Shown here piece after piece: positions 46,545 to 56,116 of a DNA stretch of 64,000 bases. Position 1 is the first letter of the stretch, and every line of letters begins with the position of its first letter. The translations under genes and the position numbers were made by a program. The notes beneath the pieces were generated by a model. It worked only from the letters and a program-made list of their open reading frames with translations, was not told where the DNA came from and made no database searches. This DNA is from Deltaproteobacteria bacterium (GTDB lineage: Bacteria > BMS3Abin14): NCBI GenBank assembly GCA_013151915.1, contig JAADHJ010000044.1:329-64328 (forward strand). The letters run 5' to 3'.

Positions 46545-47047
46545 AAAAGTGTCCATTTTTACTTGACCATCTCAGCTTCCCTCTTCAGGCAAGACACTTC
46601 ATGGATTGTAATGGGCTTGGATCCAAGCATCTCTTCGTGGTTCTCCAGACCGCTAACATTGCTTTAGCCGGCCATGCACCAGAATGAGGTGTAGGTATAT
46701 ATAGTAAAATATATCAAGCATTATCACAGACTTCGAAAAGAGCGGGAGAATGACGTATAAGAAGCATCTTGCCTGGTTCTTACCTGTACTCGCAATCTCC
46801 TAGTTTAGACTGGACTGTAAACGGGTTTTTGAGGCATATTGCAGATGTAACTTGACGGCTTTCAAGCGGGCCGCAGGCGAAATCCCGCTCTAATTCTCAG
46901 GTATGTTTTGGCCTGCTTGGCGGATTGATCTCCAGGCTACATCCAACTCTATGTAGGTTGCCGGCGATCTGCTCTGGATTTGTCACATGTGTCTGATCGG
47001 GATCCTCAGTATCGTTATAGGGTGACATGAAAATCCCCATTAATTGA

Positions 47048-47270
47048 GGTTCATCCTGGAAATGAGTACCTGGATAAAGATCGGAATGGGTGGAAAACTA
47101 ATTTAACACCGTTCGGCACGGCTTCGCTTGCTCACAGCAGGCAGGGTGATACAGGGTTAAATTAAAAGTTTTGTGTCGGCTTATGCACAGGTCAAGAGCC
47201 AATTGACCGCGAAGTTAACGAAGTTTTGCTAAGGTTAAAACCAGGACCTTAAGGGGTTTGATCTTAGCCT
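47048..47270 (+). mobile_element. Left part of MITE, right end missing
   Basis: ggttcatcctggaaatgagtacctg; gaagttaacgaagttttgctaa..ttaaaaccaggacctta is shared with 28795-28835. Confidence 0.75.
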
Positions 47271-47358
47271 GTCATGCCATCTTGTCCGTCATAGTCTGGA
47301 AGGCGAAGTCGGAAGCTCAAAAAAAGACGGCGGGAACGGTTACGGAGCTGCTTCTGAT

Positions 47359-47589
47359 TTGGGTCAGCAGCTGGACGTTTTAGCAAGGTGGAACTTATTA
47401 AGGGCCGATAAAACTGGAAATTACTTTGAGATGCACAGTCTTGTCCGACAGTTTGCATTAGAAAATTTGGATGATTCTGATGACGTGCATCTACGCCCGG
47501 CAAAACATTGCGCGAGCTTGAGCGAAGACATCGAACACCTTTCTTATCAGGACCCAGATAGGATGGTCGTTGGTCTTCAGTTATTCTGA
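47359..47589 (+). pseudogene. Possible fragment of an NB-ARC/AfsR-type ATPase-TPR gene
   Basis: FEMHSLVRQFALE resembles the MHxLVR motif; no start or rest of the gene seen. Confidence 0.35.
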
Positions 47590-47595
47590 ATCGAC

Positions 47596-49188
47596 ATGAC
47601 GCAATATAATAATAAGAAAAACATCATTTTGACCGGTTTTATGGCTACCGGGAAAACCTCTGTTGGCAGAACCCTGGCATCGCAGATCGGCTATGATTTT
47701 GTCGATACCGACCATCTGATCGAATCAAGGATAGGCATGACTATCGCCGAATTCTTCAAAGAAAAAGGCGAAGCGGCTTTTCGAAAAATGGAGGCAGAAC
47801 TTGCCCGGGAGCTTGCGGATAAAAGCGGCATGGTCATTGCCACCGGTGGTCGATTCATGCTCGATGGTGACAATGCCATCACACTTGGTAAATCCGGCCG
47901 GGTTTTCTGTCTGGTGGCGACACCAGAGGAAATCCTTAAGCGCGTCGAGAGTGATAGCCATGCCCGCCCGTTGCTCCAGGTGCCGAATCCGCTTGAGCAT
48001 ATCGTCGAACTCTTGCATCAGCGAGAGAAGGGATACGGTCAATTTCCCCAATTTGTCACCTCTGAAAAAAATCCGGAAACCGTTGCTGAAGATCTCGCAG
48101 GGATAATAGCGGGAGAGCCGGACGTCCGTCTGCCCATTGCGGCGCCTGACGACCGCTATGAGTTTATTGTCGGTGAAGGACTCCTGCCGTTTATTTCACA
48201 GTTAGCCGGAATTGATGGCCCCATTGCCATCATCACGGATGATACCGTTGGTTCCCTGTATACTCAGAGCTGTGGTTCCGTCGATGTTGTGGTCAGCATA
48301 TCGCCCGGCAGACGGAATAAAACCCTGGCAACAGCCCAGTCGATTTACGAGCAGCTGCTTGAAGGGGATTTCGACCGTAGCGGAACGGTCATTGCGCTTG
48401 GCGGAACCGTGATCAGTGAACTCGCCGGCTTTATAGCGGCAACCTATATGCGAGGGGTCGATTGTGTGCAGTGTCCCACCAGCCTGTTGGCCATGGTCGA
48501 CACCAGCATCGGCGGTAAGACCGGAGTTGATCTGCCGAATGCGAAGAACCTGATCGGTGCTTTCAAACAACCCAAAACCGTGATTGCCGATATAGCTACT
48601 CTGCAGAGCCTGCCCCCCAGGGCATTTGCGTCCGGAATGGCGGAGGTTATCAAGCACAGCCTCATCGCTGATTCGGACCTGCTTCAGAAGATCGAGTCTG
48701 GAAGCTGGATTCAGACCAGCAGGGAGATCGGGCAGCAGGCTTCTGAAATTCAGGCACTTGTTGCCCAGGCCATTCAGGTCAAGATCAATATCGTTCAGGA
48801 AGATCCTTTTGATCAGGGTCTGAGGGCTGTACTGAATTTCGGACACACTTTTGCAAACGCCATTGAACGCCTCAGCCATCATAGGGTCAATCATGGCGAG
48901 GCCGTGGCCATGGGAATGGTTGCTGCCACGAACCTTTCCGTAAAGTTGGGCCATTGCCCTGAAGAACTGCAGGCAAGGGTCGAGTCTGTCCTTATGTCCG
49001 CCGGCTTACCGACCCGGATCCCGACCAACCTGGTTCCGAAGCAGCTGTTCGAGGCCATGAGGAGCGACAAAAAGAAGAAGGCCGGGAAGCTGCGGTATGT
49101 GCTGCTCAAGGATGTCGGCGATGTCTTTGTGACCGATCAGGTCCCTGAAGATGCGGTACTCGACACTTTTGCTGCATTGAAATCCTGA
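47596..49188 (+). CDS. aroKB: Shikimate kinase / 3-dehydroquinate synthase fusion with non-canonical DHQS motifs
   Basis: GFMATGKT, RPLL; ATYMRG, VDTSIGGKTG, KNLIGAF, GMAEVIKH, HGEAV, DKK. Confidence 0.88.
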   Translation: MTQYNNKKNIILTGFMATGKTSVGRTLASQIGYDFVDTDHLIESRIGMTIAEFFKEKGEAAFRKMEAELARELADKSGMVIATGGRFMLDGDNAITLGKSGRVFCLVATPEEILKRVESDSHARPLLQVPNPLEHIVELLHQREKGYGQFPQFVTSEKNPETVAEDLAGIIAGEPDVRLPIAAPDDRYEFIVGEGLLPFISQLAGIDGPIAIITDDTVGSLYTQSCGSVDVVVSISPGRRNKTLATAQSIYEQLLEGDFDRSGTVIALGGTVISELAGFIAATYMRGVDCVQCPTSLLAMVDTSIGGKTGVDLPNAKNLIGAFKQPKTVIADIATLQSLPPRAFASGMAEVIKHSLIADSDLLQKIESGSWIQTSREIGQQASEIQALVAQAIQVKINIVQEDPFDQGLRAVLNFGHTFANAIERLSHHRVNHGEAVAMGMVAATNLSVKLGHCPEELQARVESVLMSAGLPTRIPTNLVPKQLFEAMRSDKKKKAGKLRYVLLKDVGDVFVTDQVPEDAVLDTFAALKS

Positions 49189-49302: not shown

Positions 49303-49416
49303 CTACTCCTCCTCGAGACCAAACACCCTGGATTCCATCTGGAGACCGTCCCTTAAGGCCTCATCCTCGAGGAGCAGTTCCGGGGCGCGGTCTATCTTAT
49401 GAATATTGCCGGGCAT
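49303..49416 (-). pseudogene. N-terminal remnant of an HMGL-like (DRE-TIM) metallolyase
   Basis: MPGNIHKIDRAPELLLEDEALRDGLQMESRVFGLEEE then TAG; LRDGLQ motif. Confidence 0.55.
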
Positions 49417-53650: not shown

Positions 53651-56116
53651 ATGAACACTACATCCGATGTGGTTGCCGACACCGTTGATTCGAGCCGTGG
53701 ACTCAGTAGCAGCGAGGCCGCACGCCGCCTGACGCAGTATGGTCCCAATGCCCTGGAGGTAAAGAAGACCTCTCTCTTGCGTCGGTTCCTGGGCTATTTC
53801 TGGGGCCCTATCCCATGGATGATCGAAGTGGCGGCGTCCCTCTCCGCCCTGGTGCGGCACTGGGCCGATTTCTGGATCATCCTTATCCTGCTCTTTTTCA
53901 ACGCCGGCGTCGGTTTCTGGCAGGAATATACCGCCGGCAACGCCGTAGAGGCGTTGAAGAAGCAACTGGCCATGAGGGCACGCGTGCTGCGGGACGGAAA
54001 ATGGCGGGAAATCGATGCCAAGGAGCTGGTACCCGGTGATATCATTCGCATTCGTCCGGGCGACGTCATTCCCGCCGACGTGAAACTGGTTGAGGGCGAC
54101 TACCTCAGTGTCGACCAGTCGGCGCTCACCGGCGAATCCCTGCCGGTGACCAAGCTGGCCGGCGACGAGGCCTTCTCCGGCACCGTAGCCAAGCAAGGCG
54201 AGGTGGTCGCCGAGGTAACGGCCACTGGTGCCAATACCCGCTTCGGCAAGACCGCCAGCCTGGTGCAGCAGGCGAAAACCGTCTCCCATTTCCAGAAAGC
54301 GGTGCTCACGATCGGCGACTATCTTATCTACGTCAGCCTGGCACTGGTGACCGTGCTGGTGCTTGAGCAACTGCACCGGGGCGCGCCCTGGATCGAGCTG
54401 GTGCAGTTCGCCCTCATCCTCATCGTGGCCTCCATCCCGGTGGCCATGCCTGCGGTACTCTCCATGACCATGGCGGTGGGCGCCATGGCGTTGTCGAAGC
54501 ACAAAGCCATCGTCACCCGCCTGGAATCCATCGAGGAGATGGCCAGCATGGATGTGCTGTGCTCGGACAAGACGGGCACCCTGACGCAGAATCGCCTGAC
54601 CTTGGGTGAGATCGAGGTCTTCAATGCTGACGATGAACAGGCGGTACTTCTGGCCGCAGCGCTGGCCTCGCGAGCGGAGAACCGCGACGCTATCGACGAT
54701 GCCGTGTTGGAAGGGCTGAAAGACAGGACACAGCTCACAGCCTTCTCTCAGACCACCTTTGTTCCCTTCGATCCGGTACACAAACGCACAGAGGCGACGA
54801 TCCAGGACAGCAGCGGCCGCACCTTCCAGGTGACCAAAGGCGCACCGCAGATCATCATGCAGATGGCCGGCCTCTCCAGCGCCGAGCAGACGCGAGCGCA
54901 GCAGGTGGTGGATGCCTTCGCCGCCCAGGGCTACCGTGCCCTCGGCGTGGCGCGCAAGAACAGCAGCGACACCGCCTGGACATTTCTCGGCATCCTCTCA
55001 CTCTTCGACCCGCCGCGCGAGGACTCGGCACAGACCATAGCGGATGCTCGGAACTACGGCGTATCCGTGAAGATGGTTACGGGCGATAACGTCGCCATTG
55101 CACGGCAGATGGCCGTCAAACTGGGGCTGGGCAGCAATATTCTCAAGGCCGACGCGTTGCCTGTCGAGGACGACGGCAAAGACCACAAAACAGGCATCTC
55201 GACAGTAGAGAAGGCCGACGGCTTCGCCGAGGTCTTTCCCGAGCATAAATTCGCCATCGTCAAGATCCTGGAGAACTGCAACCATATCTGCGGCATGACC
55301 GGTGACGGCGTTAACGACGCTCCCGCCCTCAAGCAAGCGGATGTGGGCATAGCCGTGAGCGGGGCCACGGATGCCGCGCGCGCTGCTTCCGACCTGGTGC
55401 TTTCCGCACCGGGGCTGTCGGTGATCGTGCGTGCCATCGAGGAGGCGCGCCGCATATTCGAGCGCATGAACGCCTACGCCATCTATCGCATCAGTGAAAC
55501 TATTCGCATCATGTTGTTCGTTGTGCTGGCGATGGTGTCCTTCAATTTCTATCCCATCACGGCTGTCATGATCATCATGCTCGCCTTTTTCAACGATGTG
55601 CCCATCATGACCATCGCCTACGACCGGACGGGGCTGGAGAAAGACCCGGTTCACTGGGAGATGCGACAGGTGATAACCGTGGCTACGGCCATGGGCATCG
55701 TCGGTGTGATCGGCAGCATGGGTATGCTGCTCATCGCCATGGACTGGCTCAGGCTGGATGTGGCGCAGATCCAGACCTATGTCTTCCTGAAGATGGCGGT
55801 GGCCGGTCACCTGGTCCTCTTCGTAGCGCGTTCCAAAGGATACTTCTGGAAGCGCCCATGGCCGGCGCCCGTTATGATCTGGTCCGCAGTGATCACCAAG
55901 GTTGCAGCCACCCTGGTGGCGGCCTATGGCTTCGGCCTCATCACACCCATCACCTGGCCGGAGATCGCCCTTATCTGGGGCTATTCCATCTCCTCGGCCC
56001 TGATCACCGATCTGGTCAAGGTGCACGTGTACCGGCACCTGGCTCACGAAACGCCGACGCACCGCGCTTTCCTGCGCCGTCTGCAGGATACGCTGCATCT
56101 CAATCACCACCCTTAA
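53651..56116 (+). CDS. Plasma-membrane-type proton-efflux P3A ATPase
   Basis: FWGPIPWMIE, DQSALTGES, SIPVAMP, CSDKTGTLT, KGAPQ, MVTGD, GDGVNDAP, YRISETIR, AFFND. Confidence 0.92.
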   Translation: MNTTSDVVADTVDSSRGLSSSEAARRLTQYGPNALEVKKTSLLRRFLGYFWGPIPWMIEVAASLSALVRHWADFWIILILLFFNAGVGFWQEYTAGNAVEALKKQLAMRARVLRDGKWREIDAKELVPGDIIRIRPGDVIPADVKLVEGDYLSVDQSALTGESLPVTKLAGDEAFSGTVAKQGEVVAEVTATGANTRFGKTASLVQQAKTVSHFQKAVLTIGDYLIYVSLALVTVLVLEQLHRGAPWIELVQFALILIVASIPVAMPAVLSMTMAVGAMALSKHKAIVTRLESIEEMASMDVLCSDKTGTLTQNRLTLGEIEVFNADDEQAVLLAAALASRAENRDAIDDAVLEGLKDRTQLTAFSQTTFVPFDPVHKRTEATIQDSSGRTFQVTKGAPQIIMQMAGLSSAEQTRAQQVVDAFAAQGYRALGVARKNSSDTAWTFLGILSLFDPPREDSAQTIADARNYGVSVKMVTGDNVAIARQMAVKLGLGSNILKADALPVEDDGKDHKTGISTVEKADGFAEVFPEHKFAIVKILENCNHICGMTGDGVNDAPALKQADVGIAVSGATDAARAASDLVLSAPGLSVIVRAIEEARRIFERMNAYAIYRISETIRIMLFVVLAMVSFNFYPITAVMIIMLAFFNDVPIMTIAYDRTGLEKDPVHWEMRQVITVATAMGIVGVIGSMGMLLIAMDWLRLDVAQIQTYVFLKMAVAGHLVLFVARSKGYFWKRPWPAPVMIWSAVITKVAATLVAAYGFGLITPITWPEIALIWGYSISSALITDLVKVHVYRHLAHETPTHRAFLRRLQDTLHLNHHP

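Follow-up and report, generated by a model that had tools for sequence, protein, structure and literature searches.

What does a protein do in which a shikimate kinase (SK) is joined to a half resembling 3-dehydroquinate synthase (DHQS), the hallmark residues of which have been changed? The question is raised by a gene located in a 64,000-nucleotide stretch of the genome of a Deltaproteobacteria bacterium (contig JAADHJ010000044.1, positions 329 to 64,328; hereafter, the window). The shikimate pathway is a textbook pathway of seven steps, targeted by drugs and herbicides, and its steps are filled in annotation by homology. The first-pass annotation described the gene, which we refer to as the fusion (Table 1), as an aroK–aroB fusion devoid of hallmark catalytic and NAD-binding residues in the DHQS half, and considered a neofunctionalised cyclase, a regulatory pseudo-enzyme, or a decaying second copy. 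The best explanation overall, which we regard as reasonably probable, is that the kinase half would be essential, the DHQS-like half would be an accessory domain without redox activity, and the Zn-dependent dehydrogenase encoded next to the fusion would replace AroE.

In the source genome of the window (G000; assembly of 2.28 Mb, 100% complete), the kinase half of the fusion is the sole full match to SKI (PF01202), with a score of 133 bits against a cut-off of 22.1. The first-pass annotation had raised the question of other aroB and aroK genes in this genome, and both could be traced on contig C51, where aroK lies between aroC and aroB: the aroB gene is canonical and intact (GGGVVGD, GHTLAH), and the aroK gene is a relic. 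Compared with its counterpart in G001, a genome of the same genus, the relic has a 45-bp deletion that removed the P-loop, a 159-bp deletion that removed the GGG motif and the lid, and a 3′ frameshift with an insertion. As the housekeeping aroK has lost its P-loop, GGG motif, and lid, the fusion is left as the only SK of G000. Thus, the description of the fusion as a second copy suits its DHQS half but not its kinase half, the only intact SK of the genome.

We compared 16 genomes of the taxonomic family of the window (G000–G015). The fusion occurs without an intact housekeeping aroK in G000, G002, G003, G005, G010, and G011. G004 and G006, which likewise lack an aroK of the housekeeping type, carry SK-only genes that are 78–85% identical to the kinase half of the fusion, keep its GGR motif, and are cut exactly at the linker. 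A housekeeping aroK and no fusion-type kinase was found in G001, G007, G008, and G009. The fusion is also the only SK in two Desulfobacteraceae genomes. Since the fusion-type kinase is the sole SK across these relatives and the two Desulfobacteraceae, the kinase half can apparently carry the pathway step alone. In support of that, it keeps 23 of the 24 columns that are invariant in canonical AroK–AroB fusions. The exception, Gly86 to Arg (Gly in 93% of the canonical fusions), is a family-wide trait, GGR being present in nearly all of the best 120 homologues of the fusion. Comparative genomics shows the kinase half to be a genuine shikimate kinase, with no other in G000, and we infer that it performs step 5 of the pathway.

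The 530-residue product has the Pfam domains SKI (residues 16–166), DHQ_synthase (residues 233–345), and DHQS_C (residues 347–494). Its score for TIGR01357, the AroB equivalog, is 350.5 bits and exceeds the cut-off of 305, and its scores are below the cut-offs of both bifunctional AroKB equivalogs (NF010627, 323 vs. 565; NF010556, 237.4 vs. 560) and of all stand-alone SK equivalogs of NCBIfam (151.6 vs. 204 and lower). In an AlphaFold model obtained with an input alignment of 40 sequences (mean pLDDT 88.8), the C-terminal two thirds match solved DHQS structures in superposition, at a TM of 0.86–0.91 on the target. A search of 5.8 billion proteins yielded 7,690 scored homologues; the best 120, which were inspected, are fusions of the same length and of 62–98% identity, the named ones among them being from Desulfuromonadales, Desulfuromonas, Desulfobacteraceae, Thermodesulfobacteriota, and Candidatus Vecturithrix. 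Pelobacter seleniigenes is a cultured carrier (WP_051690038.1, a member of the Asn type described below). A protein atlas, which was also consulted, offered no clue to function.

In the tree of DHQS domains, the members of the fusion family make up a single short-branched clade (SH-aLRT 98) that lies within the canonical AroKB fusions, and the copies from the window's taxonomic family (8 rows, support 95) are sister to the Desulfuromonadales copies. This topology suggests that the fusion descends from bifunctional AroKB. Bifunctional AroKB proteins (PRK14021, PRK13951; Anaerolineae, Selenomonadaceae, and others) have the same order of an N-terminal SK and a C-terminal DHQS fold, and their kinase catalytic residues are identical to those of the fusion. 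In contrast to them, the fusion family replaces Glu by Arg, Gln, or Gly, GGG by GG(T/S/A), and GD by S(E/G), has a choice of His, Asn, or Tyr at one catalytic position and a Trp-bearing insertion, and is almost always accompanied by a separate canonical aroB. As the hallmarks of the nucleotide site and the relay His fail, we file the fusion as a variant of AroKB and not as a plain member. The first-pass annotation had also pointed to other sugar-phosphate cyclases for comparison. The matches of the fusion to their structures are far weaker than that to DHQS (216 bits for DHQS, 117 for DOIS, 108 for ValA, and 88 for DDGS), and the score for TIGR04425 is 237.6 against a cut-off of 400. Membership in EEVS, DDGS, DOIS, or TIGR04425 was ruled out by these scores and by the fingerprint of residues contacting DAHP (3-deoxy-D-arabinoheptulosonate 7-phosphate).

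Two side observations concern the descent of the fusion. Among cluster representatives, the closest one that does not come from the cluster of the family itself is protein P0122 (1039 aa), the C-terminal half of which (residues 515–1037) corresponds to the entire fusion, with Tyr at the relay-His position, and is preceded by about 510 N-terminal residues. In the class to which Geopsychrobacteraceae belong, where a wider survey found two fusion carriers among 121 genomes, seven genomes (G056, G068, G072, G100, G102, G126, and G154) have stand-alone SKs that are 50–55% identical to the kinase half of the fusion; the window lineage's own aroK is only 34–35% identical to it. These stand-alone SKs may represent the kinase lineage from which the fusion arose.

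To compare the two groups column by column, we aligned 119 members of the fusion family with 146 canonical AroK–AroB fusions obtained in a search of cluster representatives, and took as canonical-invariant the columns conserved in at least 95% of the latter (46 columns in DHQS). The altered motifs ATGGR, LGGTVISELAGF, and NFGHTFANAIE are located where the first-pass annotation had placed them, and the substituted columns are 93–99% conserved in the canonical fusions; one further hallmark change, Glu239 to Arg, had been overlooked. As many as 41 of the 46 DHQS columns stay at least 95% conserved in the fusion family, and K317 shows a mild drop, to 87%. Just four columns are replaced, and each of them is polymorphic in the family: column 239 (Glu in 98% of the canonical fusions; Arg in 45%, Gln in 34%, and Gly in 18% of the family; Arg in the window), column 271 (Gly in 99%; Thr, Ser, or Ala in the family; Thr in the window), column 275 (Asp in 99%; Glu or Gly in the family; Glu in the window), and column 421 (His in 98%; His in 54%, Asn in 43%, and Tyr in 3% of the family; Asn in the window). 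Column 274 is also changed, from Gly to Ser in the window, where the core of the loop reads GGTVISE in place of the canonical GGGV(I/V)GD. Arg239, Thr271, Ser274, and Glu275 replace residues that are 81–99% conserved in canonical enzymes, i.e., the hallmarks of the AroB nucleotide site are absent, and so is the relay His of AroB, at the place of which Asn421 is found.

These changes could have been private mutations of G000, and we rejected this explanation: GGR and the altered glycine loop are family-wide, the form GG(T/S/A)VIS(E/G) occurring in every one of the best 120 homologues, and the relay position is occupied by His in about half of 121 homologues, by Asn in about 50, and by Tyr in 4. 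The second His is present in all of about 100 diverse aroB genes that we read from their loci. The family-specific insertion, a loop of lower confidence in the AlphaFold model, is missing from about 90% of the canonical fusions, and its Trp is 97% conserved in the fusion family. The Zn ligands E350 (AEVIK), H417, and H433 (HGEAV) are in place, as had been claimed, and altogether 12 Zn and DAHP contacts are 100% conserved in the family (R286, D302, K308, N318, E350, K353, K396, R410, N414, H417, H433, and K492/K493). The numbering of the ligands and contacts was carried by motif from the Aspergillus nidulans enzyme, the DAHP-contact set of which (R130, D146, K152, N162, K197, K250, R264, N268, and K356) is matched.

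Members of the DHQ-FeADH superfamily bind the pyrophosphate of NAD(P) through the GGG(S) loop (PMC5125639). The second His had been assigned by the first-pass annotation to phosphate elimination; according to a review, however, it serves the oxidation at C5 as a proton relay, accepting the proton of the C5 hydroxyl, via water, during hydride transfer to NAD+ (PMC7144000). Thus, the residues that bind substrate and metal appear to have been kept, and those that serve the transient redox step to have been changed and then left to vary. As the Zn and DAHP residues are kept, and the nucleotide-site residues and, in this subclade, the relay His are lost, the most likely role of the DHQS-like half is to bind DAHP, or a compound closely similar to it, with no redox turnover. 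We infer that it no longer performs the standard NAD+-dependent step 2, the conversion of DAHP to dehydroquinate. Of the functions proposed earlier, a regulatory pseudo-enzyme and a neofunctionalised cyclase are both favoured over a standard DHQS, because the alterations are limited to NAD-site columns and the relay His and because a canonical aroB nearly always co-occurs.

A genuine bifunctional AroK–AroB, an isoenzyme of the canonical AroB, would be an alternative. In such a protein, the DHQS half would be active with a differently bound cofactor (NADP+ or a more loosely bound NAD+), and water or another residue would stand in for the relay His. Acceptance of a 2′-phosphate is classically achieved by changing an acidic residue to Arg, Gln, or Gly, which fits this alternative, as do the TIGR01357 score, the DHQS fold, the 100% conservation of all Zn, phosphate, and carboxylate ligands, and the strong purifying selection described below. 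However, a canonical aroB is kept in 17 of the 18 fusion-carrier genomes, often adjacent to the fusion, next to which it was recruited more than once: a second gene, aroB2, lies directly behind the fusion in four relatives, and in G003 and Desulfobacteraceae the fusion is immediately preceded by a canonical aroB. In the tree, aroB2 is not a relative of the DHQS half of the fusion, as we had considered, but a duplicate of the lineage's own housekeeping aroB. Moreover, the relay position toggles between His, Asn, and Tyr in an otherwise almost invariant family, and the DHQS-like half was lost twice, in G004 and G006, which belong to different clades of the aroC tree, the kinase being retained both times. 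Also the H268K/H280K double mutant of Candida albicans Aro1, which covers the equivalent His, is inactive (PMC9074039). All this makes an active DHQS half unlikely in our opinion.

The fusion could be thought to be a decaying redundant copy of aroK–aroB from the IS remnants around it, the deletion of its neighbours, and the canonical aroB elsewhere in the genome. In fact, its reading frame is open, and the ratio of non-synonymous to synonymous substitution rates (dN/dS) relative to its relatives is 0.04–0.13 for the kinase half and 0.07–0.14 for the DHQS-like half, as compared to 0.15 for the housekeeping aroB of the same genus. At 156 family-invariant columns (at least 97% conserved in the fusion family), the window protein shows no deviation; other members have 1 at the median and at most 7. 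The odd residues are common to dozens to more than 100 homologues, and the kinase half is the only SK. The idea of decay thus had to be dropped, and we find it barely credible. From these comparisons, the fusion gene is intact, under selection, and a member of a large conserved family, of which the odd residues are traits.

The other candidate for a pathway enzyme at this locus is the convergent Zn-dependent medium-chain dehydrogenase. Apart from SK, the pathway genes found in G000 comprise those for DAHP synthase, AroB, type II dehydroquinase, EPSP synthase, and chorismate synthase, the only gaps being steps 4 and 5. Shikimate_dh_N (PF08501) has no match anywhere in G000, and the same search matches all 14 control genomes. 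At the place syntenic with aroE of G001, with syntenic flanking genes, we found a deletion relic: about 830 of 897 bp are missing, and the flanks and the first approximately 25 codons remain. The Zn dehydrogenase, in turn, is intact. Its catalytic Cys, His, and Glu, four structural Cys, and GAGVIG (GxGxxG) are conserved, its dN/dS is 0.11–0.22, and the Asp after strand β2 suggests NAD as a cofactor.

The distribution of the two genes in the taxonomic family of the window is complementary. The Zn dehydrogenase without aroE was found in G000, G002, G003, G004, G005, G006, G009, G010, G012, and G014, and aroE without the Zn dehydrogenase in G001, G007, G008, and G015; G011 (81% complete) and G013 (80% complete) have neither, and none of the 16 genomes has both. 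In other words, one gene or the other is present, and never both, in 14 of the 16 genomes, including all 10 high-quality ones. Three independent switches, always in opposite directions for the two genes, could be read off the aroC tree. In G009, the Zn dehydrogenase is kept even though every other gene of the cluster described below is gone, and in G000, G004, and G006 it directly adjoins the fusion-type kinase. Its survival in G000 appears to be due to the loss of aroE, and it probably performs step 4 in place of AroE. The only non-orthologous replacements given in a 2010 survey of the pathway (PMC3018139) concern DAHP synthase and shikimate kinase, and we found no shikimate dehydrogenase of the medium-chain dehydrogenase/reductase (MDR) type in the searchable literature, outside of which most subscription literature lies.

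It is also conceivable that the Zn dehydrogenase is unrelated to shikimate, that its exclusion of aroE is a coincidence of lineages, and that another, unrecognised reductase is used. Its best matches are sugar-acid and polyol dehydrogenases (RspB; a YdjJ-like model, 211 bits against a cut-off of 376), it coexists with aroE in Desulfuromonadales, and the independent contrasts are only three. Such a coincidence seems somewhat unlikely to us in view of the strict alternation of the two genes in the high-quality genomes, the position next to the fusion-type kinase, the retention of the dehydrogenase alone in G009, the relic of aroE in the same genome, and the presence of aroE in the corresponding place in Desulfobacteraceae.

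Comparison with relatives revealed that the fusion and the Zn dehydrogenase are the only survivors of a larger cluster in G000. In G002, G005, G010, and G014, the cluster consists of the fusion and aroB2, followed by iclR, a 3-hydroxy-3-methylglutaryl-CoA (HMG-CoA)-lyase-like gene, and the Zn dehydrogenase (divergent), and by the TRAP transporter genes dctPQM. Relative to G014, the window has a single 2,660-bp deletion with a junction at about 49309, which removed aroB2, iclR, and the HMG-CoA-lyase-like gene and fused codon 16 of aroB2 to approximately codon 36 of the lyase gene. No orthologues of iclR, the lyase gene, aroB2, or dctPQM are left anywhere in G000. As the first-pass annotation had noted, the locus of the fusion and the convergent dehydrogenase is flanked by remnants of IS, here IS3, on both sides. 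The HMG-CoA-lyase-like gene is present only where the cluster is complete. In Geobacteraceae, Geopsychrobacteraceae, and Desulfuromonas, the fusion is linked to iclR and the lyase-like gene, and mostly also to the Zn dehydrogenase and a TRAP/TTT transporter. In Desulfobacteraceae, DAHP synthase, aroB, and the fusion are followed by aroE, a further gene, aroD, iclR, and the lyase gene, with aroE in the place of the Zn dehydrogenase.

This conservation of the fusion beside iclR and the lyase-like gene, across the window's family, Geobacteraceae, Geopsychrobacteraceae, Desulfuromonas, and Desulfobacteraceae, could indicate that the DHQS-like half became a phospho-lyase or cyclase that acts without transient oxidation on another phosphorylated keto-acid, as part of an IclR-regulated uptake and catabolic module, which perhaps salvages or degrades compounds similar to quinate or shikimate. 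The regulator most resembles the PcaR/PcaU/PobR type, and the loss of redox-related residues with binding residues kept, together with the family-specific Trp-bearing insertion, would fit such a change. However, all 12 DAHP and Zn contacts are unchanged, which argues for DAHP itself as the ligand, and the rest of the module is deleted in G000, yet the half shows no relaxation. As, in addition, we can name no substrate, and the scores against other sugar-phosphate cyclases are far lower than that against DHQS, we consider this new activity decidedly unlikely.

Several further observations touch the cluster. The solute-binding protein of the TRAP transporter in the G010 cluster (L036 14259-17255) is closest to the solved receptors 4NQ8, 4NGU, 4P9K/4PAK, and 4PDH, several of which reportedly have small hydroxy-acids as ligands, pantoate or erythronate for instance; this hints at what the native substrate of the accessory cluster may be. 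A pyruvate-carboxylase-like pair, biotin carboxylase and carboxyltransferase/biotinyl subunit, flanks both the cluster of G010 (L036 4101-9616) and the lone Zn dehydrogenase of G009 (L150 1753-6497), because of which the locus of G009 looks like that of G010 pruned to the dehydrogenase. In a Desulfobacteraceae metagenome-assembled genome (L055 4816-7280), two proteins that may feed a signal into the aromatic cluster are encoded upstream of DAHP synthase, aroB, and the fusion: a Ser/Thr protein kinase, which has a cNMP-binding domain, and a PP2C phosphatase that is fused to PilZ. One possibility for the native purpose of the accessory cluster is the regulated uptake and salvage of quinate- or shikimate-like acids.

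The explanation that we favour can be put as three steps. First, with the housekeeping aroK wrecked, the kinase half of the fusion would serve as the only shikimate kinase of G000. Second, the canonical AroB encoded on contig C51 would make dehydroquinate, and the DHQS-like half would bind DAHP or a close analogue without redox turnover, either as a sensor tuning the fused kinase or as a partner dimerising with the true AroB. Third, the convergent Zn dehydrogenase, having replaced AroE, would reduce 3-dehydroshikimate to shikimate. We propose that these two of the cluster genes survive in G000 because they now fill steps 4 and 5. A more specific joint claim, that the Zn dehydrogenase is an unrecognised, non-homologous shikimate dehydrogenase of the MDR type which displaced AroE in a family of uncultured bacteria, and that the DHQS-like half is a DAHP-binding pseudo-enzyme controlling or scaffolding the kinase as a feed-forward sensor, is one that we advance only tentatively.

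Some of the data weigh against this explanation. As the fusion exceeds the cut-off of the AroB equivalog, there is room for a working DHQS with an unusual cofactor site, and Glu239 and Asp275 are putative contacts of the NAD ribose, as judged by the 1998 structure of the A. nidulans enzyme. In G011, the fusion is the only aroB homologue found, which would also suit an active DHQS half; the assembly of this genome is 81% complete and one third smaller than those of its congeners. As this incomplete assembly is also devoid of aroE and of the Zn dehydrogenase, we set G011 aside and do not regard it as demonstrating DHQS activity of the Asn variant. With three contrasts only, the sign test for the alternation of aroE and the Zn dehydrogenase gives p = 0.25, and the closest solved relative of the latter, Escherichia coli RspB (4ILK), has no substrate assigned in its entry. 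Finally, the fusion carriers among Desulfuromonadales and Desulfobacteraceae all keep aroE, and since those among Desulfuromonadales also keep aroK and aroB, the native role of the module would be something other than steps 4 and 5.

Table 1. Features of the fusion locus in the window and relics of related genes elsewhere in G000; residue numbers refer to the fusion protein.
Feature	Location	Strand	Basis or remarks
AroK/DHQS-like fusion gene	47596..49188	+	single ORF, 530 aa
Shikimate kinase half, residues 1-175	47596..48120	+	Walker A GFMATGKT, DTD, FR63, GGR84-86, lid R116/R124, R143
ATGGR, residues 82-86	47839-47853	+	Arg86 replaces third Gly of GGG
DHQS-like half, residues 178-530	48127..49185	+	Zn/DAHP residues intact; NAD-site columns and relay His altered
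Arg239 codon (PGRRNK; canonical Glu of PxGExxK)	48310..48312	+	column comparison
LGGTVISELAGF, residues 268-279, replacing the glycine-rich nucleotide loop LGGGV(I/V)GDLAGF	48397..48432	+	column comparison
Family-specific insertion (~12 residues), residues 369-381, with near-invariant Trp371	48700..48738	+	
NFGHTFANAIE, residues 414-424	48835-48867	+	altered GHxxGH-type motif
Asn421 codon at the proton-relay His site (A. nidulans His275)	48856..48858	+	column comparison
aroB2 relic, first 16 codons	49262..49309	+	translation matches N-terminus of G014 aroB2; alignment to L040 breaks at 49309
HMG-CoA-lyase-like relic, first ~36-38 codons	49306..49416	-	tblastn, 63% identical to the G010 protein over its residues 1-38
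Zn-dependent medium-chain dehydrogenase, 327 aa	49433..50416	-	Pfam ADH_N and ADH_zinc_N; convergent with the fusion
Housekeeping aroK pseudogene between aroC and aroB	contig C51, locus L004 1276-1641	-	alignment to G001
aroE deletion relic	contig C33, ~54264-54400		synteny with G001 aroE; flanking genes syntenic

Just upstream of the fusion, about 570 bp of the window (46925-47493) are absent from its closest relative, G014, the alignment to which resumes beyond this stretch with a 10-bp overlap on the side of G014, possibly a target duplication; no clear terminal inverted repeats were found around the stretch. An ORF of 76 aa upstream of the fusion (47359-47589) has no Pfam match, and a scan for promoters and terminators gave nothing exceeding background.

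Among known systems, AroB (TIGR01357; 1DQS, 3OKF, 5EKS) shares with the fusion its fold, its Zn ligands, and every DAHP contact, and differs from it in the nucleotide-site hallmarks and in the equivalent of His275. DOIS, EEVS/ValA, DDGS, and aminoDHQS belong to the same superfamily with the same metal site, and are DHQS paralogues with new substrates, whereas the DAHP fingerprint of the fusion is all DHQS-like. To our knowledge, neither the NAD+ site nor the second His is lost in the known sugar-phosphate cyclases. AroE/YdiB and the Zn dehydrogenase would share the reaction and the genomic role, but their folds are unrelated (Shikimate_dh_N vs. ADH_N/ADH_zinc_N), and we propose the latter as an analogue of AroE and not as a member of its family. 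In C. albicans, a separate dehydroquinase (DHQase) reportedly supplies the step of a dead domain of Aro1. Aro1 is a precedent for a shikimate-pathway domain that is retained, folded, and catalytically dead (PMC9074039); the domain concerned there is DHQase in a pentafunctional eukaryotic protein, and its inactivity was established by experiment, whereas that of the DHQS-like half of the fusion is deduced from sequence.

The fusion family is routinely labelled '3-dehydroquinate synthase', though the evidence points to the kinase step and probably not to the synthase step. Genomes like G000 would be scored as missing aroE and aroK, while the fused kinase and the Zn dehydrogenase appear to fill both steps. 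If confirmed, the Zn dehydrogenase would represent a new enzyme family for EC 1.1.1.25, and the DHQS-like half, if the proposal is true, would clearly exemplify, in bacteria, the conversion of a pathway enzyme to a domain without catalysis. With relics of aroE, aroK, aroB2, and the lyase gene present in one genome, the record of this replacement would still be visible.

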